64,000 bases of DNA from Picochlorum sp. SENEW3 (lineage: Eukaryota), in contig CP120457.1 of the NCBI GenBank assembly GCA_034226945.1, positions 248,001 through 312,000 on the forward strand, written 5' to 3'. The number at the start of each line of letters is the position of its first letter. Position 1 is the stretch's first letter. The position numbers and the translations under genes are program-made. Positions 3,145-47,415 of this stretch are shown here, one piece after another. The notes below the pieces were generated by a model that was not told the DNA's origin, ran no database searches, and saw nothing but the letters and a program-made list of their open reading frames with translations.

Positions 3145-3354
3145 TAATACAACTGTCAAAGGCAGTAGATGGGACAAAATATTCACATCGCGGAATCACT
3201 TTGGATAATGCAAATATATAGTGTCTTCCAAAAGTGTGTTCAAGGGTTAAAGAAGTTAACTTCTGCTTGATTCAAAGTTCTATAGCGGCCTCGGGCCCGT
3301 TGGAGAAAAAGTGGTGACCACAATCCAGAAATCGCTATACGTACACCCCGATAT

Positions 3355-26523: not shown

Positions 26524-28885
26524 TCAAAATGGGCACTCTTTAATACGTTCCCATGCTCCAGTTTCTCTGTTGGCCTGGTAATACTGCTCAACAGAATCGC
26601 CATCAAAGCAAATCTTGACCATATAGCCTGGAGCATGTTTGTTCTCAGAATACGTCGAGGAACGGTCGAATCTTGCGAAAAATTTCTCCAGATTCTTTTT
26701 TACCATGGTCATGCGTTTGTTCATCTCAGATTCATTACGCTGCACAGAGGCCTTCTTGAAAAAAGCTCCTTCCTGGTGTGTACCCTTCAATACATAATGA
26801 TCTGTATTCATTCGAATCAGCAGGAATGGAATGTCCTTGGCAAGCCAGTCATGAGTGATCACACGAGTGCGTCGAGCCTCCTGCAGCATGCAATAATGCA
26901 TATGCTGCCATTCGTCCACTTCCAAGGCTGCTGCAATCCTATGAGCAGAATTTTCTTTTCTTGCAAAGCAAAAGTCGATTCTATAGGCACGCCCCGTGGT
27001 ATTGTTTTTGAAAGGGTACCACCTGCCAAGGGACTCGCGCCTGATGTTGAATACGTCTGACACATTATTATTGAGCCATGCACTTGCCATGTCTTCCTTG
27101 ACTTTGCGGCCTGTATTGTCTCCAGAATACCCACTGGATATATAACGCTGGATACATTGGATAGTTTCTAGAGGAAGATTGGATTCATTCTCATCGAGGT
27201 AATGCCGAGCACAGAGATGCCCTTCGAATCTCCTGTACACAGGCCCATCGGCTAGGTTCTGCTGGCATTCTTTCAGGCATCGTTGACATGCTCTAGTGAT
27301 TTCCACATGCTTGGTTTGATCATAATGTGATGAGCAAAGGATTCGCTTGCCATCTCTTGGCAGGCCATACCAGGCAATGGCAGTACACCCCTCGTGCGTG
27401 CAGGTTGACGTGAGGAGATACACCATATCTGGCTCTTTGCATGCATTGCATCGTTCCAAGCGATTTGTTGTGGCTCCCTCGCCATCATATCCATACGATG
27501 CGGTCATCGTGTTGCATTTATTGCATACTGGGTTAGTCTTTGTGTAGCTCCCAATAAGTTTGCTATACCGCTGTCGTAGAGATGCTGCAGTCCTTCCTTT
27601 GAATGTCCCACTGGCCGCAAGTGCATCCCAACACTTTCCCACTTCCTCAACAGATTTCAAAAGACGTAAATCTTCATCCTCAGTGTAATGAGCCGATTTG
27701 ACCGAATATGCGCGGCTGTGCTCCTTAAGATGCTGTTTGTAATTTCTGAGGACAATAGGAAGTTTTGTGCATGGTCTGTCAATCTCTGGGAAATAGTCCT
27801 TACCTACCTTTGCCCAGTCTATATGTCCCAATTTATTGATATGATACTTTTCATTTTGTGACAGCGATAATAGCAGGGTTTTCTGTTCGGATGTCCATTC
27901 TCTCCGCTTTGAAGGCGACTCTGTTGACTGTTGTTCTCTGACATATTTGATCTTCTTCTTGATGGATTCCCTATTCCTCCAAGGCATCAGATACTTACTG
28001 CAATATGCTCGCAGACTCCCCCATTTTGTATCTATATACTCTCTTTCTGGACCATCTTTCAGAAAGGCTGCCACAGCTGCCCTGATCAAGTTCTCCTCAT
28101 CCTCATCATACTTGCCCTTCTTGGACTTGTATTCTTCACCGTAAACGGCATGCAAGATGTTTCTCTTTTCTTCGACTGCTTCTTCCAGATCCTTCTTACC
28201 TTGCGCATACCTTGAAGGAGCATCTGTGATGCTATTGCCTTGGGCATCTCCATGCACCCTTCATGCAGAATATATACATGGTCAATCAATGTAGCATAAT
28301 TAGGCCTCTCCTCTCATGAATCACACATGGATGTGTTATGTGTATGATATTGACGTACCTGTCACCTGACTTCTCCAGAGGGGCGAATGGCACTCCCAGA
28401 TTGACAGAAACCTCTGTGAGACGTCCTTGCATTGGAGTGCTCTTGACCGCGTCTGGACAGATCTTTTGGGGAGATGGATCACAGCAACGCTCACCAGAAA
28501 ACAAGCAAGTGCTATCATTGTTTAGTAACTTGAGACGCTTTGCTTCACGAGGGCCATATGCAACCTGTGGAGCAGTGTTTTCTTGATTCTCCTTGCATGT
28601 TTTTGTTCTTGGAGAATAATTCGCAAGATCATCCTCTAAACATGGAACATGAGACTCCGACTGGCTTCCTGTAAGGTCCACCACCTCTACTGTTGCACCA
28701 CTGCTATGCTCAAGGGTCTCATCATACAAGGAATCAGTCTCTCGATAGGTCAGAGTGACATCATCATCATCATTGTTGTTGTTGTTGATAGGCTGCTGTG
28801 GAAGACTATGGGATGATGCGACAGGCTGAAAGTAGAATGTAATCAGTCTGTTGTTTAAGGATGCCTCTTCTTCTCTTGGACCCAT
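26524..28885 (-). CDS. Myb/SANT repeats + EsV-1-7-like Cys-rich repeats + PD-(D/E)XK-type endonuclease fusion (intron 28259-28358)
   Basis: Myb repeats 'REWTSEQKTLLL...DWAKV' and 'YTEDEDLRLLKSVEEVGKCWDAL...GRTAASLRQRY'. Cys repeats 'CNKCNTMTASYGYDG...RCNACKEPDMV...CTHEGCTAIAWYG...LCSSH'. Nuclease 'YRIDF...LEVDEWQH...IRMNTDHY'. The upstream exon splices in frame (AG|G GTG). Confidence 0.8.
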
Positions 28886-29207
28886 TGAGAAAACCTGCAA
28901 GTGACATATACAATGATCAACTAATAACTATCATTAAAACAGAGAAGGGTAATTTCGCATCGCATAAATCACGTCTTGGCGTACCTTTTTCTATTTTCAC
29001 TGTCGTATACAAAGCGATTTGGAAATACCACGCCACTCGTGTTGTGATTCAAGCAGTCTTTGATGTCCTGCTGTTGTGTATATATAATTATTATTGAAGA
29101 CTATTACCATCTGAAAACTCTTCTTTCCATCGTATGATAGCAGTGTACGAGAGACATTTGATCTCATCGCATTCAAAATTGGAAGCATCATTCGATCACT
29201 GGCTGGT

Positions 29208-29240
29208 CTACCCACCTACCCACCTACCCACCTACCCACC
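29208..29240 (+). repeat. (CCTACCCA)n 8-bp tandem repeat, ~4 copies
   Basis: Read directly from the sequence. Confidence 0.85.
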
Positions 29241-29612
29241 TGCAGGCAGCCCATCCCGAAACATCAACACCGCCGTCCTGTCCTGATATTTCATGCCTCC
29301 AACTGAAGAGATGCTCAAAATTTTCTTGACAACAATAAAACTCTTCCATTCCTTTCCAACACCACAGACACATAGCATCCTTTTCATGACGTAAACTTGA
29401 AAGTATCTCAATTCTTCCAACACCCTACCGAACAACCAGACCTGACGAGTCGGATGCACCCAGGCAGGTGATATAAGATCTGTTATATAAATAATTCACC
29501 ATGGTGCCCATATGGTACCACGATGTGTGGGTCATCTCCACTGTCGGGATAATTTTCCTCGGCAGATGCAATGCATTACCACAACTACACTCTGATATCA
29601 CGAAAAGAAGAA

Positions 29613-32089
29613 GAAGAAACAATATACAATATCATGTCCATGGGGCTTCCTTTGGTCTCTGCGCCCTTCGTCTTCTGAGGCAATGTGGCCTGCACGAGCC
29701 AGGGAGAGACGGAAACCTAAAGGAGCCCCAATATGCATAAGCATATGCACTGCTCTACTTCGAGAATTACAGAGAAAGATAAATAAAAGCACAGAAAGAG
29801 CGAAAAATTGAATCAAGTTCGAACAGTGCATGAAATAATTCATTGTGTTGATGAATTCATACCTACTAGATGGCCATGTTGATGGCCAGAACCCTGCTGC
29901 TAGATATATATATATACCTCCATATATTATTAGCATACCATCGATCTAAAGATTCTAAAGATTCGAACAGGCTCTCACACGTATGCCATCCCTTCATGAT
30001 ACTCGTCACCCCTCACTACTCATCACCATGACCGCACATGTACTCTTTCCACTCACTCACTGTACTTCTAGTATATTGATCTTCTCAGAAATCATGCACA
30101 TGCGATCATTAAGATTATAGGGAACGATTTTCATCGTCATTGAAGATGAAGGGATTTGCCTCGGCAACTGGATCATAACTCTCCATGAAAAAGCCATCCT
30201 GGTTGTCGTTGACAAACAAAGGGGTTCCTGGAGTGGAATTCTGCAAGATGTCATCGTCCACGAGGCCATGTACTCCTAGAAGAGACTCTGCGACTGGAGT
30301 TTCTTGACATGTTGGCTGCGGCAAGACAGAGTCAGGGAGCCCATCGAAGATGGCATTGTTGTAGCCATGTCCTGATGACAGGTCAATCCCAGATCCTTTT
30401 CCTTCTGGTTGCACCAGACGCAAAGCATCATCATGCTGTCCGCCATTATCAGGACGTCTTGGTAGGATACCATTGAATCCTGGAAGAAGCTCTGCGGCAG
30501 GGATTCCTGGACATGTTGGCTGCGGCAAGATGGAGTCAGGGGACGTATCAAAAGCACCCTCATCAGAGGCATTCTGCTCTGATGTGTCGCCACTGCCATC
30601 TCCTGGTACCATTTTTGGTCGCACCAGAGAACGTGGAGAAACATCATCCTGCTGCACGCCATCGCCCTCAAGATCTAGTGGTCTCTTTGCACTTTTGCTG
30701 CTGGATGGGGATGCATGCTCTAATGGATTAGTTTCTGTTCCACGGCGCTTATTCGATCTAGAAATCTTTGAAGCTGTGGAGAGCAGGGTTTTCAGCGCAG
30801 CCCTACGTGCTTCGTCTTTAACAGATGTACAAAAGCTTTTCCTTACACCTTGGTCCAGCTGCTTCCAGCTCTCGTTTGCTTCCAGATCCAGATCACTAGC
30901 CTTGCACTGGATGTAAGCATCCACCTGGACACGTATGCATAAACGTGCTGGACGTGTCACTTCTTCCGTATATTTAGTCTTCTCCATTGATGCTGTATAG
31001 ATCATATCAAGTGCTTCTTTGGCTTTCTGTTCAGCCGAGACGATCTCATTCAGAAAGAAGTTGAGGCACCTGAGTGACACAATAAAAAAAGAGTGCGTTG
31101 TTGTGCCCCTTCCCATGATTTGATCTGGGCAGAAAATGTGTTCAATCTCGCCCAAGTGCTCCTTTACTATTTCTTTAAGCCTTTTATTGGTTGTAGCCGG
31201 TGTCATTGCACTGGGGGTGACGACTGTGTAATGGAAAAAGGGCAGTCGTCTAATGTTCTTAGGAAGACTAAATTCTTCGATTGTCTCATCAAAACCCCCT
31301 CGGACCTCAGCCCCCTCGCATATCGTCAATAACTTCCGAATAAGTTCGATTTGGCGGCCATCCTCGGATTTTCTTTCGCAAGTTTCTTGGAAACTGTCGT
31401 CGCTGGCCATGGTTCGTTCGTTTTGAGAGAAAAAGAAAGCAAGAAAAAACCGAAAAGCACTCTATGCTATATCACCGTTGCCTCTGCATATCGACAATAG
31501 TCAAATGTCTATGAATCGTTGTGAATCAGATAGAACAAGCCGCGGCAAAATGTTTGCGACAGAATTGTTGACTCGAGCTGTTCGGCTTCATCTAGTAGTA
31601 GATGTCGCTCGCAGCGCTGCGGTTGAAACCGTTTTGTAGTGATAAAAACGGGTTCTAGACACATATAAACACCAACATGTCGTATATATGTGATACTAAT
31701 GACATACGATTGCACGTACAAGAGTTTCGGTTTGAAGTTGACTTTGCGTTCGACTACTCTGCTCTACTCTCAACACTTGAGAAGAAGAAAAGACAGTCGG
31801 TACCTAAACAGAGAATAGTTACTACTGTTGTTGGATATATGGTATGAATTGGAGGACTATTACATGCTGGAGTGCCTCATGATGGCGGAGTTTTGCTGAT
31901 TGATTCTCGAATAGTCTGTCCTTCAAGGCGGGTAAATTCAAATTCGCGAATTCGATTGACACCCCCTGTCAAAGGCTCTTTTTGAAGGGATCGTGGGAAG
32001 CTTTCCCTGAGATGGCTGTGTGTATGCCATCAAAAGGAACGTTTGATCGGAGATGGAAGATACGTTAGGAGATGTGAGACTGTCTTGGT
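29613..32089 (-). repeat. Left arm of ~2.5-kb inverted duplication (partner 43955-46648)
   Basis: 29613-~30715 and ~31400-32089 are near-identical reverse complements of ~45340-46648 and 43955-44643. Confidence 0.93.
30115..31410 (-). CDS. Hypothetical protein, paralog A of the inverted-arm gene family
   Basis: 431-aa intronless ORF. Its C-terminal half is nearly identical to 44635-46134, and its N-terminal domain is distantly homologous. Confidence 0.8.
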   Translation of the reverse strand: MASDDSFQETCERKSEDGRQIELIRKLLTICEGAEVRGGFDETIEEFSLPKNIRRLPFFHYTVVTPSAMTPATTNKRLKEIVKEHLGEIEHIFCPDQIMGRGTTTHSFFIVSLRCLNFFLNEIVSAEQKAKEALDMIYTASMEKTKYTEEVTRPARLCIRVQVDAYIQCKASDLDLEANESWKQLDQGVRKSFCTSVKDEARRAALKTLLSTASKISRSNKRRGTETNPLEHASPSSSKSAKRPLDLEGDGVQQDDVSPRSLVRPKMVPGDGSGDTSEQNASDEGAFDTSPDSILPQPTCPGIPAAELLPGFNGILPRRPDNGGQHDDALRLVQPEGKGSGIDLSSGHGYNNAIFDGLPDSVLPQPTCQETPVAESLLGVHGLVDDDILQNSTPGTPLFVNDNQDGFFMESYDPVAEANPFIFNDDENRSL

Positions 32090-32260
32090 CCTTCTTTCAC
32101 CTCCTACTAAGCCCATCTTTCGACCGGAGGATCTTCTGAGATAGCATATTAGGCCAAAAAACGGCATATATGCCGTTGCTATATATATAGCATAGACTAC
32201 GGCAAACCGGCTCGCTATGCCAGGCCCCCGCTATGCTGATGACCCAAGGTGAATCACCTA

Positions 32261-32292
32261 GACGGGAACCACGGAATCAATTAAGAGCGGCC
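32261..32292 (+). mobile_element. Solo, diverged right TIR of the Harbinger-like MITE family
   Basis: GACGGGAACCACGGAATCAATTAAGAGCGGCC followed by TAA, resembling the 42818-42849 TIR. Palindrome-rich sequence lies upstream at 32140-32240. Confidence 0.7.
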
Positions 32293-32714
32293 TAATAGAA
32301 ATCCCACAATCGAGTTGATCCGCCCTTATAACTCTTAATTAATTAATTAAGAATGGGTTTCTAAAAAGGAAGTTTTCGAACCTTTTTAATGTTCTAAAAT
32401 TCTCATTAGCCCCGGGTCCTAAAAACCCCCGATCGAGGGGCAATCTTGACTCATCTCATTCGCACTGGATACACAAGTACTGTGCACAATTCTTCGCATG
32501 TACAATCAATCTACACTTTAAAGTTATTTTGGCAATCTTCATGCTGCAACGCTCACCTCGGTGACCTACACCTTGAACGAGAGTTTGAGCATGTCCTATA
32601 CATGTGCGTTTTGCTCTCTCACACATTGTTGCAATCTCTACCCATGATGCTATATCGGTATAATCATATATTTTCATCTATCTTATCCGCATCTGAGCAA
32701 TTTCTGTGCAGGAA

Positions 32715-33623
32715 ATGGCCCTCCCTTTACACGAGCTGTACAAAGACAGGGACGTCTGGGAGTTTTGGAGAGAGACTGAGGCGTTTTCGGACGCTATTCC
32801 CCGCATCTGTAACCACGTAGAGACTCTAATTCAACGCTATGGGGCATTGTACGGCGTGGTGGTGTGGCTGGGGACCGATGGCAAGATGTATATGGTTTCC
32901 AGCAGGAACTTGGGGCTTGCCTTTAGGCTCATACCCTTGAGGCTTTTGAAGCAAGGTCTGAGGTCCTACGTCGCTGAAATCCTGGGATATAGACCCCTCT
33001 GGGTTGATTGTATTAAGGTGAAGAATATATATGGACGAGGGAGCCAGGACGAGAGGGGAAATAGCAAAGGATATCACAACAAGAAGGCTGCTTTCTCCCT
33101 GCTGCAGAAGAGGCTTGCAGAGTCGCACGCCTTGCCTGTGGTCGCTCTAGTTCACGCTAACAATAAGTATTTAACGCTGTGTCATCCACAGAAAGATACG
33201 AAGATGCAAAATATGCTGGAGAAGGTGATAAAGTACTACCAATCCTTGTCCAATGATGGGTGCATGCCAAAAATCAAGCCTAACTTCTCGTTTCTGCCGC
33301 CCTCTTTGCATGTTGACAGCAGTTGCAGACTTAAGCGACCATCAAATTTGTCGTCTCGTCCGAACAGGAGAAAGAAGACGCCCAAGACAAGGGATTGCCA
33401 GTCTCCAGGGGATGAATGGGAGGCCATGGAGTTTGTGCATGAACCTGGCTCGGTGCCGTGGTATTGTCACGCGATCAAGGATCCTAACGGCACCGGAGTA
33501 GCTGCTTTGATCAAGTCAGACATGTATTATAAATGGGCGTTCGCGGATGCTCGATGCCATGGGCCTGGGGGCAGTATGAGGGTCCACCACAACTTGCTGG
33601 TTGAGGTGGAATCTGAAGCTTGA
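32715..33623 (+). CDS. ORF immediately upstream of the KDZ transposase ORF; likely its N-terminal part (frame change near 33600)
   Basis: ~300-aa ORF overlapping the next ORF by 23 nt in a different frame, with the same GC-richer composition. Confidence 0.6.
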   Translation: MALPLHELYKDRDVWEFWRETEAFSDAIPRICNHVETLIQRYGALYGVVVWLGTDGKMYMVSSRNLGLAFRLIPLRLLKQGLRSYVAEILGYRPLWVDCIKVKNIYGRGSQDERGNSKGYHNKKAAFSLLQKRLAESHALPVVALVHANNKYLTLCHPQKDTKMQNMLEKVIKYYQSLSNDGCMPKIKPNFSFLPPSLHVDSSCRLKRPSNLSSRPNRRKKTPKTRDCQSPGDEWEAMEFVHEPGSVPWYCHAIKDPNGTGVAALIKSDMYYKWAFADARCHGPGGSMRVHHNLLVEVESEA

Positions 33624-35976
33624 TCCCATGGGCCATTTGCGGTGCTCTTGTGCCGTATTTCGCAATTGTCTGGAGCCCAAAGAATGTGTTCACACGTTGT
33701 ATACCCGTGTGAACTCGGAACGCCTGCGCAGTATGGCGTTTTCAAAGGAAGGCGAGGTGGTGACCATCATGAAAAATAACTCCTCCACAGCTGGCTACTA
33801 CGTGGACGGCTGCTTCGTCAGGATGCAAGGCGATAGGGGTCTTCGATGCGATTCAGATAAAGCTTATTATTGCCGGCATGTCTCTCGGGTGAGGGAGGCA
33901 TTGCACCTGGATGTGGAGCCTGGAGAGGAAGAGAGTGAGGGTTCACTTGATCCCTGCTCCTCTTCCTCTGATGACGAGGCAGACGTGCTGCCCACGAACG
34001 CATGGATAACGGATACATCAAAATCATTCAAGATAGAGTATCCTTATAGCAGTGTATTGGAGGAGGCGGTGATGGAGCGGCTGCTGTTTGGCTTTTCAAG
34101 AGACAAGGAAGGCACCCCACTTGGGCCTCTTCAGCCACCCATGCCCACCTCGATCACGTGCGAATGCGGCCTTCCTTATACAAGGAGAGGATTTGAAGAG
34201 ACAGATCCTGTGACGGTGTATATGAGACCGCCGCACTGCGCCAGGACGCTTCCCTGCATGGTGTTGAAGTGCCAAAGGGGTGCACCAGAATGCACCCTGC
34301 ACTATACAGGCTTGGAGGACGGCCTGTGGCGTGCCTCCAAGACAGTGGCGGTAGAACTGGATCTTTTAGTACGATGTGCAAGGGATTTTGTCGGATTTAG
34401 AGGACATTCGCTCACTGCACAGCGCGACAGCATCAGTGAAATGTATGACATGGTTTCTCGCACCAATCCCACTGAGAGTTTCCTAGTGGCCAATGCGTTC
34501 CGAAAAGCAGTATATGGAGTTGCTAGCTGTCTTCAATTTGATATAAAGGGCATTGAGAGGAGCTTGCGAGAAGGATGTGGGGCTGCAATGCCACCAAATG
34601 CCATGATGTGTCCCATTTGCCAGGACAGCCCAGATGTGATCATCATGGATGGCACCTCCATGTCCATCAGCGCCTCTCTTTGCAGCGCCGAGTCCTTTAC
34701 GGCGCGCAGAGGTACTATTACTAAGAAAAGACCGCATTTGATGGTCGAGCGGTGCTTTTTCAATGTCAGCAATGGGACGAATGAGGTCCCAGAGAGACGT
34801 GCAGGGCAGAGGCGAGAAGTCATCAAGCTTGTGCAGGACTTTGAGTCTTGGATCGAGTCGAAGGACACTCCACAGGGATTTGTGGGCATCCATAGACTTC
34901 GTAGTCTCGCTGATACGTGGAATTTGGGCGACTTTGTGGCGTGGGTGCACGAATCGTGCAGAGAGGGGCGGCTGTCTGTGGTGGATAGGAAAGCAGTCAA
35001 AGCCATGCTGCGGGAGTTGCGGAGCGATAGTCCAACCACGTCATACCTCTCCTACGAGTCTTCTATAGACCTTGATGGCTGCCTGGAGGCGGGGAGGGTG
35101 GTGGGACAGGCCGTCATGGACAAAGTGGGCCCCATCGTCAAGAATTTGCTAAGGATTGTGCAAGCGCCGGGCCAAGAGGGAGCTGTGATCCCCATTGGGT
35201 GGGTTTCTTTTCTACGTGAGATCATAGAAAGAAGCAGATGGATTTCCGAGATCAACTGTGGCGAGCGCGAGCTGGGAGATGACATTCCTCACCCATGTGA
35301 GGCCTCTGCAGTGAATGGGGTTTTCCTCAGGAATGGCGTCTGTTGCGGCCTCCCTCGGCTGCGTTTCCGTCCCCCATACGCATGCGATGGACAGAAAGAA
35401 GATTCAAAAGTGACTGAGAAGGACAAAGCGTCCTGTAAGCATGCGTTCCACAAGCCAGGGAAGAGGACAGGTGGAGTGTTTACGTGCATGTGCCAGCACG
35501 GCGTTGCATATGCTTCATTCATCATCAAAAATGCCGAGGGCCGCGATGAACCTTTCACATTTCTCACCTGCTATCTCAAGAAAGCTCCGAGGGTCGTGGT
35601 GTACGATTTCGCGTGCGCATTGATGGATTACTGCCTCAACAGGGCACCAGACTTTTTCAAATTTACTCTGTTCGTTGTGGATGCCTTCCATTGGGTGAAT
35701 CACGTCGCCTGTGCCAGGAGTTTTTCCATTAAATTATACAGTGAGATGAAGGACATTGCCAGCATGACGCAGAACACAGAGGCGTGCGAACAAATCAATG
35801 CTGCCATGAAGAGGTTCAAGCCGGTTCTTTCCAGGATGGGCCAGCGGCCATTCATCGCCCTGTTACGCCTGTTTCTGACACAATGGAACATCTCAAAGTA
35901 CCATAAACTCATTCGATACAGCATGGCGCGCCCAAGGCCGGAGCAGGTGCAGGTACATGCGCCAGATCAGCAGTGA
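33601..35976 (+). mobile_element. Kyakuja-Dileera-Zisupton (KDZ) transposase, Kyakuja-like, with SWIM-like and CxC Zn-binding regions
   Basis: 'CPICQDSPDVIIMDGT', 'RTGGVFTCMCQHG...EGRDEPF', 'VVYDFAC.L.DYCLNRAPDFF...FVVDAFHWVNH..C' and 'NTEACEQIN'. N-terminal 'CSC...CVH' and 'C...YCRHV'. Confidence 0.88.
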
Positions 35977-37309
35977 GGGACTGCCGAGTGGCCTGCTGTT
36001 TCAGCAGGGTTTTCCGCCGTCCACAGCGTACCACGGCGCGTTTCGATGCGTCAAACACGTCCCGATTCACTATTTGAGTTGTAATGATGCCAAATCGGTG
36101 CAGAATGCGGGGTTGAAGATCGGCTCGATGCCGCCATGACCCTCTAAAAGCCTGCTTTTTTGACCGCAGGAACGGCACCCAGCCTTGTCGACCTCCGCCC
36201 CGAGCCGCTCTCGCGTCCACATTGGCATCTTCAATACTTCAATATACAGGATTGTGGGCCAGTGGAGCGTTCGATCGAGTGTAGACCGCCCTGGCTCGCC
36301 TTCTTGTGGAGACATGACACGGTTCGGACGGCGACGAACCGCACAGCATCATGTGCTCAAGCATCCGATGGTATCTTTTTACACATTTAATTGATGATTT
36401 TAGGGGATATCCGAGACTGTTGAGATCCCCTGCGCGCGATCGCGCATGGCAAGAAATTCAAATTTCGAGCAGGTCGTTGCGCGGAGCACGGCCGATCCGG
36501 AGCTCGCGACATAATCTGCGTGGCAAATAATGGTCATTGATATATTTGAAAGTATTGAATGCACCCTGCTAGCATGATAGAGGCCTGGGCGGAGACCCGA
36601 CTTTTCGAACTGGCATTTGAATTCCCAGTCTGCAGCAAGCTCGGGTAAACTCCGGTGTAGGGCATATGGCGAGTCCCCAGGATACAGGGTATATGCATGG
36701 TGCGATTTTATGCAGGTCATGTCGATGTTCAGAGCCTAGGCGGATGAAAACCCGCGCCAGAGGAGCCGGTCTGTCATCATATTTGATTGGCATGAGGAAA
36801 TACCCTATCTGGCACAGGAGATTGACGTTTGTCTCCCATCAAACGCGTTTTTCCTGTTCAATGGGAGACGAACGTCAATCTCAGAGCAACCCCGTGGAAG
36901 AGAGGGATGTCTAGGACAGGCAGACTCTCCCTCTCCCATCACAGGACTTCAATGAAGGCTGCCAACTTTCAGGACCAGGATGGCCGCCTTATGGACGCAA
37001 ATACAAAGTGATTACGGTAGTATAATATATATTGATGCATATAAAAGCCAAATGAATGCTGCGGAGAGGGCAGTGCTGCCGTCCCCGCAAGAAAGTGTGT
37101 AATGTGCATGCAAACATCATGCTGCATGTGTGGCACAAGGCCCAATTCATGCTCATACAGCGGTTCCAATTAAAATAAGACTTGCACTCCATTCCAATAT
37201 ATTACCACACACATATGATATATTTTTCCAGCCTTGTGGCGAGAATGGTCATAGCACACGAGCAAAGCCAACAATGTTGCACTGCTGCAACTGATCCAAA
37301 CTATGCAAC

Positions 37310-38506
37310 TTACTGTCCATCCTCACCTTGCACAAGCTGCTCAGGTGGCATGTCGATATTCAACGCTTCTTCCTCTTGATAGGTATTAATAGTTTGTAGA
37401 TGAGACAATAGTGTATCCAGCGCCTGTTCATGAGATGTCACAACAGCTGCATCTCTGCCTTTCTTCCTGAGTTGCCCCTTCAGGGTGCTAATGATGTCAT
37501 CAAGGTTTGATACCGACACGAAAGACACGCCTTTCGATGCATTTTGACATGCATATCTTTTGCGATCGAGCAACCACTCCTCGTCGCCCTGGCTGGCATC
37601 ACTCAGTGCCCAGGTTGCATGCTCCACATCCCTCCTGTGCAGGTTGAAGTCTAGGCTTGGCCTCCTCACCAGCGAATTGGTGTCCCGCTTCTTGTTCCAG
37701 ATCGGGAGAAGGCGATTAAGAATCTCAATCAGTTCCTTCTTCAGGTAGTACATGCCGTTTTGTATGGGATTGCCCTTTTGGTCTTGTGTTCCATCTGGAA
37801 CTGTCACAGAGATCAGGGTGGCACAAGCATCTTCACTACCCCCAATGAACCGCTTCGTAGCGCCCAGTTCTATTGAGTTATTGATTTCCTCCATTTCTAG
37901 CAAGCACTCCTCACCGGCAGCGGGCGTTGCAGGCGTCACCTGCTGGTGGGGTGCTGGGGTTACCCCATCACTGTCATCCCTCATGAATGGCAGAGCAGCC
38001 AATGTACCAGCAGCCTCGCTGAAATCGACACTGAACTTGCCAAATATTGTAGAAACCATCTGTATATCTTCCATGATCACCTCCAAATTATCCAAGTAGT
38101 TCTGCACCACCCCTTTGCCCTCCTCAACCTGCTGCATCTTGTATGCAGCCTCCTCTTGGGCCTGCTCCAAAGAGGCCACTCTGGCATCTGCTCGCGCCAG
38201 CTTGTCAAACGTTGACTTGTAGTCGAACAGCAGCTGCCCAAGGAGCTTGTTGCTGAGATCTGGGCACATCTCCTTGGCATCCAGAGCGCCATTGTGGAGC
38301 ATCTCATACTGCTGTTCAGGGTTTTCGGTGCCGGCTTTATAGATGTGGCACCAATCGCGCGTCGTCCACCTTTTCACATCAGAATTTGGTTGATTTATAG
38401 ATGCTGTATCGCGCGCGTTTTGCTCCAAGACAGCATCGAATGCGCTGCAAAGTCGCTTCGAAGCTCGACCAACCTCTGGGTCCATTGGCGCATGTCCACG
38501 CGACAT
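37310..38506 (-). CDS. Hypothetical coiled-coil protein convergent with the KDZ transposase (possible element companion gene)
   Basis: ~400-aa intronless ORF with heptad region 'KLARADARVASLEQAQEEAAYKMQQVEEGK'. No family recognised. Confidence 0.7.
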   Translation of the reverse strand: MSRGHAPMDPEVGRASKRLCSAFDAVLEQNARDTASINQPNSDVKRWTTRDWCHIYKAGTENPEQQYEMLHNGALDAKEMCPDLSNKLLGQLLFDYKSTFDKLARADARVASLEQAQEEAAYKMQQVEEGKGVVQNYLDNLEVIMEDIQMVSTIFGKFSVDFSEAAGTLAALPFMRDDSDGVTPAPHQQVTPATPAAGEECLLEMEEINNSIELGATKRFIGGSEDACATLISVTVPDGTQDQKGNPIQNGMYYLKKELIEILNRLLPIWNKKRDTNSLVRRPSLDFNLHRRDVEHATWALSDASQGDEEWLLDRKRYACQNASKGVSFVSVSNLDDIISTLKGQLRKKGRDAAVVTSHEQALDTLLSHLQTINTYQEEEALNIDMPPEQLVQGEDGQ

Positions 38507-38797
38507 ACCTCTCACAGCGCTAAAATCCAAGAAAAACTCTCCAAATTCCTCAACAAACTTTATTAATACTTATAAACGACAACGCGCGATACAATAGACC
38601 ACGAAATCGCAGCAAGCTCGCGACCCGTTCGAATGGCGTCTCTGAACACCACACACAACTTGATTCAAATTTAATTGCACAGTAGATTAAGCTGCTTTAA
38701 TTCATTGCTATGCTGAAATTTCAATCAATCAAAATGTGTGTCGGCCACACAAGATTGATGACTTGGACACTATATCCCCTTTGTGTTTTTACACTAT

Positions 38798-39800
38798 TTA
38801 GAACATGGGGAATCTCAAAATTCTATGCTCAAAATAACAAGTAGTGGAGGGCCGAAAGTGGCGATTTGTGAGTTGATTAGCAATCGTAAATAGACATTTG
38901 GGTAAACCGTTTTGTAGATTGGGAGAGCTTACTTGGATTGTAAGAGATCTGCATGTGTGGATAGTAATCATGGGGCTAAGAGATGAAGTGCATCCATTTA
39001 CCAGGTAATCTGTTGTGACTTTAGATATCAAGTGCAGAGAGAAACTAATGGAAGAAGTGGGCAGTAGTATTATGCATGGCTCTTTTGCTTGCAAGTTTAT
39101 TGAAGGCCTGAGCCAAGAGAGTGGTTTCTGACCAAGCAGGCCGTAGGTCGGTTGCTTTATTGCATGTGGAGACAATATCAACCAGATACTTTTCCTTGTC
39201 GTTGTCATACTTTGCTGTGCTGAGGATACAGAGAACGAAGACGTTGAACATGCTTGTGCAAGGGTCGAGGTTGGTCTGAGAGATCGTCTTTCTCCTGTGA
39301 CATGACCTTCAAAAGAAATGTTCATGTTAAGTTTGCAGCTATATTCAAACATTGAAACTTTCTTTTTCTACATAGTAGGCCATTCTTTCTGGACACATTC
39401 CAAATGAAACGCTGAAACGTTGACTTTTCATGTCACCTAGGTGGTGTCCAGTCAACCATTGAGGTCAAGGTCGACTATCGCGAATATTAGTCGCAATATC
39501 TTCCTCGTCTTAGAGCCTTTGCGTCCATCTAATAGCACAAAAGTTTTGCTTTTTAATCTTCTTCTCATTGAGTCCACTAGAAAACCCTGAAGTTATAACT
39601 CTTCCCTTGGAGAATTCATCCAAATCACCGCATTTCCCCATTATCTCACATGTCGCTTCTTTATACGACCCAGTGTCCCAGATATCCGAATAATGTCGTT
39701 CATTAAATCTTTTAAAGGTCTCTGTTGGCCGTATCGTCAAAGTTATTGCTCCTCCATTGTCTTCATCGCACTCGCGCAGCGAAACGGAGCACTTTCAGGA
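38798..39800 (-). pseudogene. Fragmented coding-like sequence of unknown family
   Basis: Several protein-like minus-strand ORF pieces (39510-39740, 39045-39251, 38798-39352) in shifting frames. Confidence 0.3.
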
Positions 39801-40251
39801 TATTACACGCTACTGAAAAGTTTTAATTTTTCATTTTATTTCCGAATTTGTGGTCGGGGGACGATATCTTTATGGCCGTGACTCTTCGGATTCGTGTTTT
39901 TCGCGTTGTTTTCGCGCGATTCTGACCATTTTTACGATCCAGCGACTCGAATGACACCTTAATACAATATTACATTGATTTAGGGGGGCGAGGGAATTTA
40001 ATACGCGCCAGGGGAGCCGAGGGAGCGACATCGTGAAAAAGTTTGGAAGCCTATTACCGGCCCTCGAAAAATTTATTATTTTATTATGCTAAGGGAAAAT
40101 CATGCCACTAGACCACAGCCCCTTTGATCGGACGCGAACGTCAATCTATTTTGGAGCTGGGAAGAATCGAACTCCCGACCGTTCCCATTCTATGCATATC
40201 TTGATACCTCTGCGAGATTTTTGGATCAATAAGTACTATCGATGTTCCGCA

Positions 40252-42166
40252 CTTTTTTTTTTTTTTTTGAGCCGTGTTTTCTGCACGCCAAGGCTCTGGA
40301 CAGCGGATCCGACCGCCCCTTGGTGTGCTGAAGAAGCAAGAGAGTGAGAAAATCTGGGCCGACACAAAGTTGCTGCTTGCGTGGGCGGCCTTCTCGTGAG
40401 GGAACCCGGCTGCCTGTGCGACTGAGGAAGCTTGGGGTGTCAATGAGAAGCGCCCACGTTGCAAGTGGTTCCTTTCTGGTGGCCCGTGCCTGTCAGGAGA
40501 CAGAGCAGTGGCCGCCAGCTGGGTGTCCAGATACCATTCCAGGCATGTGAGGATTGCACTCACTAAAAACTCACTCCCACACCTCGGGATGGGATCACCC
40601 AACCCCTTGGCGTCGACTGGTTGTTCTGGGCCTTCCAGACCAGACCCCGCTGTCTCCGAGCTGTTCTGCCGCCTCGGCGACATGGGAGTGAACAGCCCCG
40701 AGCCTGGGGGCGGTGGTCCTTTCAGCAAAGAACTGCCTTACACTAAACGGTGCATTGGCTCTGGGACGGACCGGGGGTGACCCTCTGCGCTGGGTCACCT
40801 TATCACGAATGTTCTGAAAGTGCTTGCCGAGCACTCGATGTAAAAATCTGCCTACACGTTGCCACAACGGGATCTGTGGCTGGCTGCTGCTGGCCTCGCC
40901 AATCGAGGCTGTGTCTTCTCCATCCTCGTCCTCATCCATCAGCCAAGACATGGCTGAGTCCTCTGGTGCCTGCATTGAGGAACCATCACTGTCTGTGTCC
41001 TGCACACTGGGCATCTCATCTTGAGGGCTCGTCCCTCGCACGTGAGTAGATAAATTGTTAGTATGATCAGTGGAAGACGTAGATCGTAAGTCATACCGGT
41101 GGGACTCCCTGGCTGGCTGGGAGGGAGTCCCTTCCACGTGGGGGGCTGTCCCCCTGGCTGGCTGTGGGAACGGCGTGCCCACCCACATTTGCTGAAATTT
41201 CTGAAGAATTTCAGCGTCAGTGGTGGAGAGACCTCCAAGGCACGCTGTCCACACAGTGTCACTTCGACGTTGCAGCTGGTGGTTTTTTTTGAGCCGTGTT
41301 TTCTGCACGCCAAGGCCCTGGAACAGCGGATCCGACCGCCCCTTGGTGTGCTGAAGAAGCAAGAGAGTGAGAAAATCTGGGCCGACACAAAGTTGCTGCT
41401 TGCGTGGGCGGCCTCCTCGTGAGGGAACCCGGCTGCCTGTGCGACTGAGGAAGCTTGGGGTGTCAATGAGAAGCGCCCACGTTGCAAGTGGTTCCTTCCT
41501 GGTGGCCCGTGCCTGTCAGGAGACAGAGCAGTGGCCGCCAGCTGGGTGTCCAGATACCATTCCAGGCATGTGAGGATTGCACTCACTAAAAACTCACTCC
41601 CACACCTCGGGATGGGATCACCCAACCCCTTGGCGTCGACTGGTTGTTCTGGGCCTTCCAGACCAGACCCCGCTGTCTCCGAGCTGTTCTGCCGCCTCGG
41701 CGACATGGGAGTGAACAGCCCCGAGCCTGGGGGCGGTGGTCCTTTCAGCAAAGAACTGCCTTACACTAAACGGTGCATTGGCTCTGGGACGGACCGGGGG
41801 TGACCCTCTGCGCTGGGTCACCTTATCACGAATGTTCTGAAAGTGCTTGCCGAGCACTCGATGTAAAAATCTGCCTACACGTTGCCACAACGGGATCTGT
41901 GGCTGGCTGCTGCTGGCCTCGCCAATCGAGGCTGTGTCTTCTCCATCCTCGTCCTCATCCATCAGCCAAGACATGGCTGAGTCCTCTGGTGCCTGCATTG
42001 AGGAACCATCACTGTCTGTGTCCTGCACACTGGGCATCTCATCTGGAGGGCTCGTCCCTCGCACGTGAGTAGATAAATTGTTAGTATGGTCAGTAGAAGA
42101 CGTGAAGCTTGGGGTGTCAATGATTTTTTTTTTTTTGAGCCATGTTTTCTACACGCCAAGGCTCTT
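40252..42166 (-). repeat. Head-to-tail tandem of a 1023-bp unit (one full, one partial, one stub), each ending in a poly(A) tract on the minus strand
   Basis: Identical ORFs offset by 1023 (e.g. 40344/41367, 40508/41531). T-run + GAGCC(G/A)TGTTTTCT(G/A)CACGCCAAGG at ~40260, ~41285 and ~42130. Confidence 0.93.
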
Positions 42167-42207
42167 GTCAAATGGATTTGATTCGTTGGTTATATATTTT
42201 ATTGTAA

Positions 42208-42849
42208 GGCCACTCTTAATTAATTCTGCTGTTCCCGTCAAATCGCCTACTACTTTTGGCAGGGATGGGGCCGAGATTTATAAATCGTCTGTTGCTCGAA
42301 ATCTGTAACGAATTGGACCAAATAGATGCCACCATGCGACAGAACTCGTCGAGAGGAGTCGATTGACGGGGTTTGAGGCTCAAACTCGATCATGATGCAT
42401 CGTGATTGGTCATGGCCACTCCTGAGGGCAGACGATCCAGTCGGCAAAAATTTGAAATTTTACAAAGATTGGTTCGAGCCAAATTCACTTGAGCGATACA
42501 GAAGGCCTGATAGGAAGAAGAGGAAGAATGTTTTGAATGATAACTAGCTTCAAATATGAAGATATGCTGTACAGTAGACTTAGTCAGCATCTACTGAATA
42601 GGGAGGTTGACCAACCATGCTCTCAAGGACCAGAAATGGAGCCAAGTCGTGATTTTTTGAGCATGATGGCTACTCAAGAGCATTAAATGTCATATTTGAT
42701 GAATAAACGCATTAAAACCCTTCATAGGAGCTTCTAAGACGCACTATCCATCTTTATATTTTTGAGGCGATTTCTGTTTTTCACGCGCCTACCGACTACT
42801 TTTGTCAGAGCACTCCTGACGGGAACAGCAGAATTAATTAAGAGTGGCC
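42208..42849. mobile_element. PIF/Harbinger (Tourist-like) MITE
   Basis: Perfect 33-bp TIRs GGCCACTCTTAATTAATTCTGCTGTTCCCGTCA with TAA on both sides (42205-42207, 42850-42852). No coding capacity. Confidence 0.92.
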
Positions 42850-42890
42850 TAAACACAATATATATCTGTAACGCGTTCCTTAGCACCGTA

Positions 42891-42953
42891 TTTAGGACAT
42901 TAAAAAAGTTCTAAAATTCTCTTTTTTAGAGACCCATTCGTAACTGAATTGTT
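42891..42953 (-). repeat. Inverted copy of the terminus-like motif (candidate right end of the KDZ element)
   Basis: Its reverse complement AACAATTCAGTTACGAATGGGTCTCTAAAAAAGAGAATTTTAGAACTTTTTTAATGTCCTAAA matches 32351-32399 and 23602-23632. Confidence 0.75.
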
Positions 42954-43451
42954 CTACAGAATATCCACCTCAGAGAGAATCTCGCCAACGGATCAGATCC
43001 ATGCGCATCAGCAAATTTTGCTATATCACGCCTTCTCATCCTTCGAAAGGGATGATGAGGAGATTCTGAGCTCCGCTGGGAACTTGCCAGGTAGTTTGTG
43101 CCTACTGTAGGTCTTCTCACCTCTTGTACTAGCTTCTTTTCCACTCTTTCGGTTGCCTCAGACCTCAGATTTTTTTTTCTTATTGGATAGCTACTTCTCG
43201 CTGGAAACTTGTGTTTTTATGGTACTCTGGATCAAGGTCGTTTATGACAGTTTTACCTGCTAGAGTTCCTCTGACACTGGTCTCCTCCCTGTATTAGTGG
43301 GTTGATAACAGGTGGAGTCGTATCTCGAGTTGAATCAATAGCGTAGATTTATTTGCCACTGCATTTGTTTCTCTGGTGTTTTTTCCTCTTCGCCAATGAT
43401 GCCTGGAGTGGGGCCTCCGACGGACGAATTCCTCCGTCGACACGGAACTAC

Positions 43452-43492
43452 CAGCACCTATAGGTAGCTACTGGTGCTGTAACCCACACTAG
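43452..43492 (+). mobile_element. Helitron-like 3' terminus (hairpin + CTAG before T)
   Basis: Stem CAGCACC...GGTGCTG, a 9-nt spacer, then CTAG followed by T. The same 21-mer CTGGTGCTGTAACCCACACTA recurs at ~26342 and ends CTAA|T. Confidence 0.6.
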
Positions 43493-43954
43493 TTAATTAT
43501 CATGAAACACTGCAGCCTGTTACCAATCCACAATACACACATCCTTATCCAACAGCAAAAGTACTAATAGAAATAGAGATCACCAGATCTTGGGGTTGGC
43601 ATAGAACAACACCATGATGTTTCCAACAGTTTGCTTTGATTGTGAATTACTGTTCACGAATGAACTTGCCCTGCAGGAGACAGGTCAAACCAGCCCATGA
43701 AAGCCAGAATAGACACTTCAGGCCTCCCTTCCCTGGTGGAATGGGGCTCAGAAACATGTAAAAACCCTGGAAATACCACAGGATCACTTGACGTGGCCAA
43801 CACAGGGCTCTAAGACCCAAAACTGCTCAGACTGACCGGCAAGACACTTCAAAATCGAATCATAATTTGGGTCACTGCGGCATTTTCTGCTTCCATACAT
43901 TTCTGCTTTCATCTGTATGTAGTGGCACTCCAAGTCGATTTTTGATCTCTTCTT

Positions 43955-46648
43955 ACCAAGAGACTCTCACATCTCCTAACGTATCTTCTATCTCCGATCA
44001 AACGTTCCTTTTGATGGCATACACTCTCAGGGAAGGGTTTCCCACGATCCCTTCAAAAAGAGCCTTTGACAGGGCATGTCAATCGAATTCGCGAATTCGA
44101 ATTTACCCGCGCTTTGAAGGACACACGATTCGAGAATCAATCAGCAAAACTCCGCCATCATGAGGCACTGCAGCATGGAATAGCCCTCCAATTCATATTA
44201 TATATCCAACAACAGTAGTAATTATCCTCTGTTTAGGCACTGACTGTCTTTTCTTCTTCTCAAGTGTTGAGAGTAGAGCAGAGTAGTCGAACGCAAAGTC
44301 AACTTCAAACCGAAACACTTGTACGTGCTGTCATATGTGATTCGTATCACATAGATATGAAATATTGATGTATATATGTGTCTGGAACCCGTTTTTATCG
44401 CTACAAACGGTTTCAACCGCAGCGCTGCGAGCGACATCTACTACTAGATGAAGCCGAACAGCTCGGATCAACAATTCTGTCACAAACACTTTGTCGCGGC
44501 TTGTTCTATCCAATTCACAACGATTCATAGACATGTTACTATTGTCGATATGCAGAGGCAACGGTGATATAGCATAGAGTGCTTTTCGGTTTTTCTTGCT
44601 TTCTTTTTCTCTTTCTTTGCCAAACGAACGAACCATGGCCAGCACCGGAAGACTTGCTGCCCTCAATGGCATCTGCAGCGAGAAATTCCACAAGATACTA
44701 TCTGAAAATGGGATCAAAGCAAGGGGCACCATCAGTGGTGGATCTGAATCGTATAGCAGAGACGTATTTTGTCTTCCAAATGATGTACCACTGCCACTTT
44801 CTCATTACAGAATCGTCTTTCCCGTGGCAGTTGACGTGAAAACTGTCAATTCAGCTTTCAGGATAGCCCTTGGCAAGGATATGGCGAATCATACCGTCTG
44901 TCCCGAGGCAGCCAATGGTAGCACAAAGGAGCACTCGTTTTTTGTGTATGTGTCTAGCAATCTCAAAGATTCGCTGGGCGAATCATGCATCAGAGATGAA
45001 CAGACCAAAGAAAACCTTCTTGTGGTATATAATGCATCTCAGCCGGAAAACACTACCTGTAGTGACATGACACTTTACCAGCGACTGTGTGCACTTGTCT
45101 TGCTGTATTCTTTCATCCTGTTCAAAGCGGATGCTCGGGCACTGAGGATTCAGCAAGGTACCTTCTTCTCTATGCGGTTAAAAGATATAAACAAAACTCT
45201 TAAGAAGAACTGCAAGCGCACTGCAAGTCAGATTGTGAGGAAAGCGCAGAGATCTCTTCTGGGAAAAGCCTATGCAACATACCAGTTAAACTTGGAGCAA
45301 CCAAAAGATTCGATAGATGTTGCCATACCAAGAGAGGATGCATCCCCATCCAGCAGCAAAGGTACAAAGAGACCAATAGATCTTGAGGATAATGGACTAC
45401 AGCATGATGATGTTTCTCCGCGTTCTCTGGTGCGACAAAAAATGGTACCAGGAGGAGATGGTAGTGGCGACACACCAGAACAGAATGCCTCTGATGATGG
45501 TGCTTTTGATACGTCCCCTGACTCTGTCTTGCCGCAGCCAACATGTCAAGGAACTCCTGCCGCAGAGTCTCTTCCAGGATTCAATGGTATCTTACCAAGA
45601 CGTCCTGATAACGGCGGACAGCATGATGCTTTGCGTCTGGTGCAACCAGAAGGAAAAGGATCTGGGATTGACCTGTCATCAGTACAGGGGTACAACAATG
45701 CCATCTTCGCTGGGCTCCCTGACTCTGTCTTGCCGCAGCCAACGTGTCAAGGAACTCCTGCCGCAGAGTTTCTCTCAGGATTCAATGGTATCTTACCAAG
45801 ACGTCCTGATAACGGCGGACAGCATGATGCTTTGCGTCTGGTGCAACCAGAAGGAAAAGGATCTGGGATTGACCTGTCATCAGTACAGGGCTACAACAAT
45901 GCCATCTTCAATGGGCTCCCTGACTCTGTCTTGCCGCAGCCAACGTGTCAAGAAACTCCAGTCGCAGAGTTTCTCTCAGGATTCAATGGCCCCTCGGACG
46001 ATGACATCTTGCAGAATTCCACTCCAGGAACCCCTTTGTTTGTCAACGACAACCAGGATGGCTTTTTCATGGAGAGTTATGATCCATTTGCCGAGGCAAA
46101 TCCCTTCAATGACGATGAAAATCGTTCCCTATAATCTCCATGATCGCATGTGCATGATTTCTGAGAAGATCAATATACTAGAAGTACAGTGCGTGTGTGT
46201 GAGAGTGGAAAGAGTACATGTGCGGTCATGGTGATGAGTAGTGAGGGGTGACGAGTATCATGAAGGGATGGCATGCGTGTGAGGGCCTGTTCGAATCTTT
46301 AGAATCTTTAGATCGATGGGATGCTAATAATATATGGAAATATATATATATATATATCTAGCAGCAGGGTTCTGGCCATCAACATGGCCATCTAGTAGGT
46401 ATGAATTCATCAACACAATGAATTATTTCATGCACTGTTCGTACTTGATTCATTTTTTCGCTCTTTCTGTGCTTTTATTTATCTTTCTCTGTAATTCTCG
46501 AAGTAGAGCAATGCATATGCATATGCATATTGGGGCTCCTTTAGGTTTCCCTCTCTCCCTGGCTCGTGCAGGCCACGTTGCCTCAGAGGACGAGGGCCAC
46601 AGGGACAAAAGGAAGCCCCATGGGCATGATATTGTATATTGTTTCTTC
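43955..46648 (+). repeat. Right arm of inverted duplication (partner 29613-32089)
   Basis: Near-identical upstream and downstream flanks and 3' coding half. Confidence 0.93.
44635..46134 (+). CDS. Hypothetical protein, paralog B of the inverted-arm family, with a 201-bp (67-aa) internal tandem repeat
   Basis: ATG context AACCATGGCCAGC is the same as in paralog A. 'PDSVLPQPTCQ' units start at ~45517, 45718 and 45919. Confidence 0.82.
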   Translation: MASTGRLAALNGICSEKFHKILSENGIKARGTISGGSESYSRDVFCLPNDVPLPLSHYRIVFPVAVDVKTVNSAFRIALGKDMANHTVCPEAANGSTKEHSFFVYVSSNLKDSLGESCIRDEQTKENLLVVYNASQPENTTCSDMTLYQRLCALVLLYSFILFKADARALRIQQGTFFSMRLKDINKTLKKNCKRTASQIVRKAQRSLLGKAYATYQLNLEQPKDSIDVAIPREDASPSSSKGTKRPIDLEDNGLQHDDVSPRSLVRQKMVPGGDGSGDTPEQNASDDGAFDTSPDSVLPQPTCQGTPAAESLPGFNGILPRRPDNGGQHDALRLVQPEGKGSGIDLSSVQGYNNAIFAGLPDSVLPQPTCQGTPAAEFLSGFNGILPRRPDNGGQHDALRLVQPEGKGSGIDLSSVQGYNNAIFNGLPDSVLPQPTCQETPVAEFLSGFNGPSDDDILQNSTPGTPLFVNDNQDGFFMESYDPFAEANPFNDDENRSL

Positions 46649-46901
46649 AAAATATATCTTTATAACGATATATTTCAATGAAACACAGAATACCGCTGCG
46701 CGATGTTTTGAACGGTTCCGACATGGGCACCAAGAAGAACATTCGGTCCAGGCACCTCTCCAGCCGTACGGCGACGCGTCGCGACGGTGACACAATGAGA
46801 ACATTGGACCTTCATGCAACAACAGCGTTTGGGCGATAGAAATGGCTCAGCCCCATGTGGGCGAGATGAAAGAAATTTACATCAATATATAATTTGAAAT
46901 C

Positions 46902-47312
46902 ATGGATTCTGAACTGATTCAATGCCCAAACTGTGGTAAGTGGCTCAAGGTGCTTGGCACACAACACTACAAAGGTTGTGCTGGCATAACGAATGAGGAA
47001 CTGCGAGATCGAATAGTCCAAGCCAGCAAACAAGCAACAATTATGAGGAAAAGAATGTACAATAGGGATCGGGATGCAAGAAGACTGTACGGGGGAAAAA
47101 AGCTCCGTGTGGGTCCACATGAGGACAATGATGATTCTCTGGTCTGCAAGACCCGCCTGAACAAGTTTGAGAGAGCACTGATTGAGGCTGTACCTCGTCT
47201 GCCGAGAAAAAAAGAGGTGGGTGACGGTTTCATGAAAGCTTCCTGGGACTCTATGCATTGCCAAAGAGCACGATCCACAAAATATCACTCCCAAAATACA
47301 CACACTTGGTGA
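46902..47312 (+). CDS. Small basic hypothetical protein with N-terminal Zn-finger-like motif
   Basis: 'CPNCGKWLKVLGTQHYKGC' followed by an R/K-rich helix. Confidence 0.4.
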   Translation: MDSELIQCPNCGKWLKVLGTQHYKGCAGITNEELRDRIVQASKQATIMRKRMYNRDRDARRLYGGKKLRVGPHEDNDDSLVCKTRLNKFERALIEAVPRLPRKKEVGDGFMKASWDSMHCQRARSTKYHSQNTHTW

Positions 47313-47415
47313 TACGATGGGATCCTTTGCTTTGTGGCAAAAAAGTAATCTGTAATTCATTTACTAATATTATTATTCATCATGAACACCATATATATAA
47401 CATAGCAACAAAAAA

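Follow-up and report, generated by a model that had tools for sequence, protein, structure and literature searches.

The window analysed here is a 64,000-nucleotide stretch of the genome of Picochlorum sp. SENEW3 (assembly GCA_034226945.1, contig CP120457.1, positions 248,001 to 312,000 of the forward strand; the positions given below count from its first letter). It contains two related genes, A and B, each embedded in a duplicated block that also includes non-coding DNA on both sides. The genes are inverted and are transcribed divergently across an 11.9-kb spacer. Their blocks are alike in the upstream region, in the first three codons, in the remainder of the coding sequence and in the 3' flank, and differ deeply in the segment that encodes the N-terminal domain (N-domain). 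The same mosaic recurs in other neighbouring pairs of the family, and the two types of N-domain are older than the species in which they are found.

Two inverted genes that differ in one domain

The duplicated blocks (arms) and the spacer that separates them are laid out as follows.

29613-32089, minus strand: arm A, the whole duplicated block (upstream region, gene A and 3' flank), 2477 bp; delimited by blastn and sliding identity against arm B and by inverted-repeat pairs I1-I13.
31411-32089, minus strand: shared non-coding region upstream of gene A (putative promoter and 5' untranslated region), from its alignment to B 43955-44634.
30115-31410, minus strand: gene A (protein winA, P0001), an open frame of 431 aa with an N-domain of clade A, from the open reading frame (ORF) and the maximum-likelihood (ML) tree.
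30717-31401, minus strand: diverged core of gene A, codons 4-232, encoding the folded N-terminal domain, from base-level breakpoints and AlphaFold2.
30115-30716, minus strand: common coding part of gene A, aligned to B and predicted to be disordered.
29613-30114, minus strand: shared 3' flank of gene A, aligned to B.
43955-46648, plus strand: arm B, the whole duplicated block, 2694 bp, from repeat search, blastn and sliding identity.
43955-44634, plus strand: shared non-coding region upstream of gene B, from blastn and base-level alignment.
44635-46134, plus strand: gene B (protein winB, P0003), 499 aa from the ATG, with an N-domain of clade B, from the ORF and the ML tree.
44644-45337, plus strand: diverged core of gene B, encoding the folded N-terminal domain of type B, from base-level breakpoints.
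45516-45989, plus strand: tandem repeat array of 201 nt (67 aa) in the shared tail of B (period 201, 2.4 copies, 96% matches; repeat families D2 and D3).
46135-46648, plus strand: shared 3' flank of gene B, from blastn and sliding identity.
32090-43954, no strand: spacer between the arms, 11.9 kb, characterised by KDZ-transposase ORFs, repeats and contig depth.

Three blastn alignments cover the likeness between the arms. The first pairs A 32089-31402 with B 43955-44643 (91.1% over 698 columns) and comprises the upstream region, through ATGGCCAGC. The others pair A 30721-30274 with B 45333-45780 (90.5%) and A 30541-29613 with B 45717-46648 (92.9% over 942 columns, tail and 3' flank). In a 60-nt sliding comparison, identity goes from 55-60/60 down to 21-35/60 in the core and back to 51-60/60 beyond it; beyond the outer ends of the arms (29613 and 46648) and beyond their inner ends (32089 and 43955) it stays at background (17-24/60). 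All four ends of homology and both internal breakpoints appear as steps in this profile. At base level, identity ends directly 3' of ATG GCC AGC, that is at codon 3 (A 31402, B 44643), and restarts at ATGCATCCCCATCCAGCAGCAAA (A 30716, B 45338). Both edges of the core are sharp to within a few bases, the 3' edge lying at ATGCATCCCCATCC.

Between these edges lie about 229 codons, in which the codon-aligned nucleotide identity is 303/657 (46.1%), and 39.3% at third positions. Conversion tracts were not found within the core, where the longest identical run is 8 nt (permutation p 0.51). The cores are homologous, with 57 of 220 aligned residues identical and one family hidden Markov model matching them at 379 and 298 bits, and both frames are open. 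A first reading made from the sequence alone had described identity through about 700 bp of upstream DNA to ATG GCC AGC, its collapse for about 230 codons followed by an abrupt return, and variable domains that are still homologous in two open frames. All of this is borne out by the alignments, and the sliding-window comparison shows sharp rather than gradual transitions. The same reading called the flanks and the C-terminus near-identical; the likeness is real and its degree was overstated, the common parts being 91-96% identical.

The segments differ widely in age. According to the Nei-Gojobori method, the core (222 codons) has a proportion of synonymous differences (pS) of 0.69, a synonymous divergence (dS) of 1.90, which is saturated, and a non-synonymous divergence (dN) of 0.78. 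The corresponding values for the tail (197 codons) are a dS of 0.099 and a dN of 0.062, so that dS differs about 19-fold between core and tail. Since its silent sites are saturated, the core is old and is more than a fast-evolving protein segment. The three shared segments have similar divergence, namely 7.6% in the non-coding upstream region (51 mismatches in 671 aligned bases, plus 26 gap columns), 6.8% in the common coding part (40 in 592 aligned bases) and 4.2% in the 3' flank (21 in 502 bases); their heterogeneity is borderline (chi-square p 0.052).

The common coding part of gene A encodes a basic KRP patch, a linker rich in Ser, Pro, Gly and Asp, two 67-aa repeat units and an acidic-aromatic C-terminal motif ending in NRSL. 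Gene B carries one 201-nt repeat unit more. Units 1 and 2 of B are 97% identical to each other, which dates this expansion after the A/B split. The small ORFs of the shared 3' flank (112 and 115 aa) resemble chance frames in non-coding sequence, and Rfam and tRNA scans of 28000-48000 gave no matches. Within the window, tblastn with 11 family proteins and a repeat search (seed 14, minimum 80 nt) found only these two copies of the family.

The protein family and its parts

The family is tiny. A profile built from ten N-domains has 20 matches at an expectation value (E) <=0.001 among 1.84 billion representative proteins. Every match with an organism name comes from Picochlorum, with several members per Picochlorum genome. 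The sequence-only reading had named the existence of only these two copies as an argument against itself; the family has more members, and other pairs share the pattern.

In an ML tree of the N-domains (27 rows), four main clades are found. In P0044, a single BPE23 gene model, an A module precedes a B module. Clade A (11 rows, support 100/99) contains winA, with the first of these modules as its sister (100/99). In clade B (8 rows, support 100/99), the sister group of winB consists of P. renovo P0006, BPE23 P0011 and the second P0044 module (99/96). Identity between species is high within each type: 214/232 (92%) for the N-domains of winA and P0044 module a, and 188/228 (82%) for those of winB and P0044 module b. 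Hence, both types predate the divergence of the sampled species, and they are conserved, not hypervariable.

A search with the tail only gave eight matches, and 8/8 are known members that carry an N-domain of this family. No fused forms longer than 755 aa were found, which is weak evidence, and among the metagenome contigs none of 168 pattern matches encodes a family relative. Two members, P0009 and P0038, bear MMETSP identifiers, which we take to denote transcriptome assemblies; this hints that relatives are transcribed in P. oklahomense. Depth is uneven among the public sequencing runs that might be of RNA, and run X4 lacks cover over core B; neither observation is taken as evidence on expression. 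The family is absent from the titles and abstracts listed in searches of the Picochlorum literature on gene conversion, concerted evolution, paralogs and transposable elements, and at the level of titles and abstracts it appears to be undescribed so far.

Each of the two proteins has three parts: a folded N-domain of about 210 residues, a disordered acidic linker with 67-aa repeats and a conserved acidic-aromatic C-terminal motif. For residues 1-232 of winA, AlphaFold2 yields a model with a predicted local distance difference test score (pLDDT) of 84.2 and a predicted template-modelling (TM) score of 0.84, in which a small alpha/beta sheet subdomain is followed by a helical bundle. In the full-length model, pLDDT is high up to about residue 222 and falls below 50 for residues 226-431; the shared C-terminal half is predicted to be disordered. 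The 3' breakpoint coincides with the border between the sole folded domain and this tail, and the 5' breakpoint with the beginning of the protein. With an isoelectric point of 4.1-4.5, the shared half is acidic; it is rich in Ser, Pro and Gly and has a short basic KRP/KRQRP patch, and its C-terminal end is a strongly conserved acidic-aromatic motif (...DGFFMESYDPFAEANPF..DDENRSL).

Some family members end differently. In P0031, P0043, P0010 and P0012, a helical C-terminal module (...LCRLVR.CSS.L..AH.LG...MRGRR...) replaces the NRSL tail, and in P0010 the N-domain profile matches twice. The module could thus have arisen by copying part of the N-domain's helical half. Such alternative ends speak further for a shuffling of modules within the family, or else for gene models that were merged.

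Relatives of known fold or function were searched for at several levels. At the Pfam cut-off, no family is assigned to the two window proteins (2/2) or to the relatives (20/20). The N-domain has 0 matches at E<=1 among 177,635 PDB sequences, and 0 at E<=0.001 when its model is compared by Foldseek with the PDB and with BFVD (viral structures). In an exhaustive structural alignment against 48,161 chains, a designed binder scored best (Z 5.0) and no chain reached Z>=8; a language-model atlas gave no usable match. Rows at Z<=5 were treated as noise, as were those for the LAGLIDADG and ribosome-recycling-factor folds (E 0.14-0.6, TM <=0.24, root-mean-square deviation 15-21). A CENP_C_N hit in 1/20 relatives was dismissed, since it reaches 20.1 bits for a cut-off of 27 and lies within the low-complexity linker.

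The catalytic-looking residues of winA and winB (His-x2-Cys-Pro and His-Ser-Phe-Phe) are lost in more distant members, and an enzyme therefore seems unlikely. It is conceivable, if doubtful, that the two are nuclear regulatory proteins whose N-domain would set the specificity and whose common tail would serve as an effector or interaction motif. A role in recognition, defence or as a toxin-antidote pair had been suggested from the sequence; structure prediction and Foldseek comparison brought up no convincing Pfam, PDB or fold relative of the proteins, and nothing found points in that direction.

Origin of the mosaic

The pair in the window, with N-domains 26% identical and remainders 88% identical (173/197), has two counterparts elsewhere. 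P0016 and P0037 belong to clades A and B, respectively, and have consecutive locus tags on one contig. Their N-domains are 28% identical (59/211) and their remainders 86% (69/80), and they share a tail of a different class, ending in ...ILSEIRTKHL. In P0044, modules a and b are 27% identical in the N-domain (62/227) and 93% in the remainder (28/30), which here is a 30-residue linker. The relation is the opposite between members of the same clade that belong to different pairs, where the N-domains are 48-49% identical and the remainders 30-35%. Similarly, P0018 and P0031 have N-domains that are 95% identical and C-terminal parts that differ. Thus, N-domains follow type and tails follow neighbourhood.

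The trees of the two parts are incongruent. The tail alignment (62 columns) rejects a clade made of the six owners of clade-A N-domains (approximately unbiased test, p-AU 0.022) and is compatible with a group of winA, winB, P. renovo B and BPE23 B (p-AU 0.50). The tail of winA is 98% identical to that of a B-type protein of P. renovo. In the linker, identity is 88% for winA and winB and 93% for modules a and b of BPE23, that is within genomes, and 77% (23/30) across species between winA and BPE23-A.

The reading that we favour, at a probability of about 0.68, is that A and B are old neighbours whose sequences, apart from the N-domain, are homogenised by ectopic recombination or gene conversion. 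The two N-domain types had separated by the time the sampled Picochlorum species diverged and have remained distinct, and the old pair appears to have been duplicated as a unit at least once. The rest of the 2.5-kb unit (some 680 bp upstream, codons 1 to 3, the coding part for linker and tail and about 500 bp of 3' flank) would be copied between neighbours by ectopic homologous recombination, which would account for shared parts that differ by only 4-8%. The inverted arms may have exchanged sequence by gene conversion, and unequal exchange may have contributed if the genes were once arranged in tandem. Exchange would halt at the edges of the N-domain core, where an identity of 46% is presumably too low for pairing; such an inability to pair would give sharp borders even without selection. 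Chimeric folded domains are probably selected against as well, and this would act in the same direction as the heterology barrier. The mosaic, the unequal ages of its segments, the antiquity of both N-domain types with their persistence across species, and the recurrence in other pairs are observed; the molecular route (conversion or crossover) and the cause of the barrier (heterology or selection) are inferred from them. The genes are inverted in the window and, by implication, in tandem in BPE23, which suggests that an inversion took place, perhaps linked to transposon insertions in the spacer. The shared upstream DNA would give both genes the same regulation.

The sequence-only reading had proposed cassette exchange or gene conversion. 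Gene conversion or recombination is supported by the 19-fold difference in dS, by the incongruent trees and by the two additional pairs. The other half of the proposal, a diverse domain exchanged as a cassette, is not supported: the N-domains form only four main clades and are conserved between species, the tail-only search led back to known members, and the core is free of tracts.

Several observations weigh against domain-limited homogenisation, or at least soften it. The similar divergence of the three shared segments is equally compatible with one dated event and with repeated conversion. Tracts of different ages are indicated only marginally, by dispersion indices of 2.07, 2.00 and 1.11 and by longest perfect runs of p 0.093, 0.040 and 0.203. 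For the A lineage, the comparison within and between genomes covers 30 residues only. Outside the N-domain, the identity of winB is 171/192 (89%) to P. renovo B and 88% to winA, so that homogenisation may have preceded or followed speciation. The evidence from other species and from the second pair consists of predicted protein models, not DNA; the adjacency of P0016 and P0037 is deduced from consecutive locus tags, and that of the BPE23 modules from one fused model, which could be mis-predicted. Finally, among the contig matches listed, no independent contig bridges a 5' junction.

The similar divergence of the shared segments is also what would be expected from one recent inverted duplication of a whole A- or B-type unit, some 4-8% of divergence ago, followed by a single replacement of the N-domain from a third, diverged member located elsewhere. 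The breakpoints are single and sharp, and further family members in Picochlorum genomes could have been donors. For the window locus alone, recent duplication with core replacement is possible. As the general explanation we consider it unlikely, since the BPE23 and P0016/P0037 neighbours have the same mosaic and three independent occurrences would be needed. Moreover, a replacement tract requires homologous donor flanks, which amounts to flank homogenisation anyway.

Two bolder ideas have, in our view, a very low probability. According to the first, the pair would be a two-component specificity module in which the old N-domain types might be partners or rivals, for instance in a heterodimer or in a self/non-self compatibility pair that would resemble the divergently transcribed mating-type pairs of fungi; promoter and tail would be kept identical for like expression and action. 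If this were true, such a module would have been found in an alga without a described sexual cycle. According to the second, the arms would bracket a transposon-rich, centromere-like core. Passages of one genome study describe one putative centromeric region per Picochlorum chromosome, mapped by Hi-C (PMC11092101).

We regard it as highly improbable that the arms are the long terminal inverted repeats of a large KDZ-type DNA transposon, with the gene copies as part of the element. The arrangement invites the idea, because an apparently intact KDZ-transposase frame lies between the arms (plus-strand ORFs 32706-33623 and 33601-35976; Pfam KDZ PF18758, E 8.2e-08) and the inverted arms enclose an 11.9-kb segment with further copies in the genome. 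In X3, one of the public runs from other studies, the summed contig depth in the arms is only 187-594, far below the 676-5114 of the spacer, which shows that the arms are not carried along with the repeated element. Contigs from other runs part from the window at about 32100-32300 and 42203-43379, positions inside the inner ends of the arms. By eye, a terminal-repeat or target-duplication pattern is not evident at the outer ends, and family pairs with other tails exist elsewhere.

Hardly any weight goes to an assembly artefact, by which two haplotypes or a chimeric palindrome would have been joined. Misassemblies commonly take the form of inverted duplications around repeats. In addition, passages of PMC12636532 report Picochlorum genomes as diploid. 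The arms, however, differ by 4-8% and by one repeat unit, so they form no read-level palindrome, and both cores are present in contigs of the public runs. The 3' junctions are bridged by record 18 of run X4 (30601-31394) and record 15 of run X3 (45075-45517), and A and B modules stand on one predicted BPE23 gene. The least probable explanation is a recent duplication followed by diversification of the N-domain through targeted hypermutation or strong positive selection: divergence confined to one domain and a high core dN would agree with it, but synonymous sites are saturated too (pS 0.69, third-position identity 39%), both types have relatives 82-92% identical in other species, and no reverse transcriptase or template repeat was seen in the window, where repeat search and tblastn gave two copies only.

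Surroundings of the locus and known systems

Besides the transposase frames, the spacer contains a 1023-bp direct repeat (40300-41622) and its guanine-cytosine content reaches 0.565. It also holds a 406-aa minus-strand ORF without a Pfam match (37310-38530); one X4 contig with 45 differing letters covers this ORF at a depth of 302, and no higher depth occurs in the region compared with the contigs. Loose-end sequences of contigs from other runs were not found at other places in the window. Passages of PMC11092101 describe a genome of low repeat content, with transposable elements making up about 5% of the nuclear genome and a few localised repeat-enriched regions.

On the outer side of arm A, the adjoining 577-aa minus-strand ORF (26524-28257) encodes a Myb DNA-binding domain and an EsV-1-7 cysteine-rich motif. 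Arm B adjoins a 726-aa ankyrin-repeat protein (47416-49596, plus strand) whose repeats are visible as direct-repeat families in the DNA. The window as a whole has long open frames with few interruptions, which encode eukaryotic domains (SNF2, ankyrin, Myb with EsV-1-7, oxoprolinase, KDZ transposase); together with the Picochlorum relatives of the two proteins, they agree with a trebouxiophyte green alga as the source. A perfect 583-nt inverted repeat (499-1081 and 2564-3146, with 1482 nt between its arms) lies near the start of the window. ORFs 893-1339 (plus strand) and 2339-2752 (minus strand) share the same start (MASAKMRR...) for about 63 residues and then diverge; the repeat is another inverted partial gene duplication, with arms that have not diverged.

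Picochlorum, strains of which serve in industrial production, has very compact genomes. In such genomes, a pair that is retained and actively homogenised is probably functional. The pair is a clean, replicated case in which regulatory DNA and a disordered effector tail would be homogenised right up to the border of a folded domain, and it lends itself to asking whether gene-conversion tracts are limited by sequence heterology or by selection. With it comes a protein family limited to Picochlorum, whose confidently predicted fold has no convincing relative and whose members often occur in A/B pairs. It reveals no new mechanism; the new elements are the gene family, the unmatched fold and a threefold replication with two tail classes.

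Domain-limited concerted evolution, in which one island stays divergent in spite of gene conversion, has been well described in other families, among them Tigriopus GOT1 (PMC3728101) and the CEACAM receptors (PMC7042247, PMC8860441). As in known cases of partial gene conversion between paralogs, part of the length of A and B is homogenised, another part is divergent and the gene trees differ by segment. In contrast to these cases, what escapes is a folded domain in its entirety, and homogenisation extends to non-coding flanks and a disordered tail, in a family found only in Picochlorum and with three neighbour pairs and two tail classes.

The palindromes of the human Y chromosome undergo gene conversion from arm to arm. 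The locus resembles them in that inverted, gene-bearing arms flank a spacer and conversion within the chromosome would keep the arms alike. However, at 2.5 kb the arms of A and B are short, their identity is only 91-96%, a heterologous block of 0.69 kb interrupts them, and their spacer is rich in transposons. The bE/bW or HD1/HD2 mating-type pairs of basidiomycetes are transcribed divergently and have variable N-terminal specificity regions and constant C-terminal parts. A and B have the same layout of divergent transcription, variable N-terminus and constant C-terminus. They differ from HD1/HD2 in having neither a homeodomain nor any other Pfam match, in being paralogs of one family, and in having N-domain types that are conserved between species instead of multi-allelic. 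Lastly, antigenic variation of the pilin, VSG or var type proceeds by cassette exchange. With these systems the locus shares a constant frame around a dissimilar segment with sharp borders. Unlike them, it lacks a donor repertoire, with two copies in the window and 20 relatives among 1.84 billion proteins, and its dissimilar segments are stable across species.

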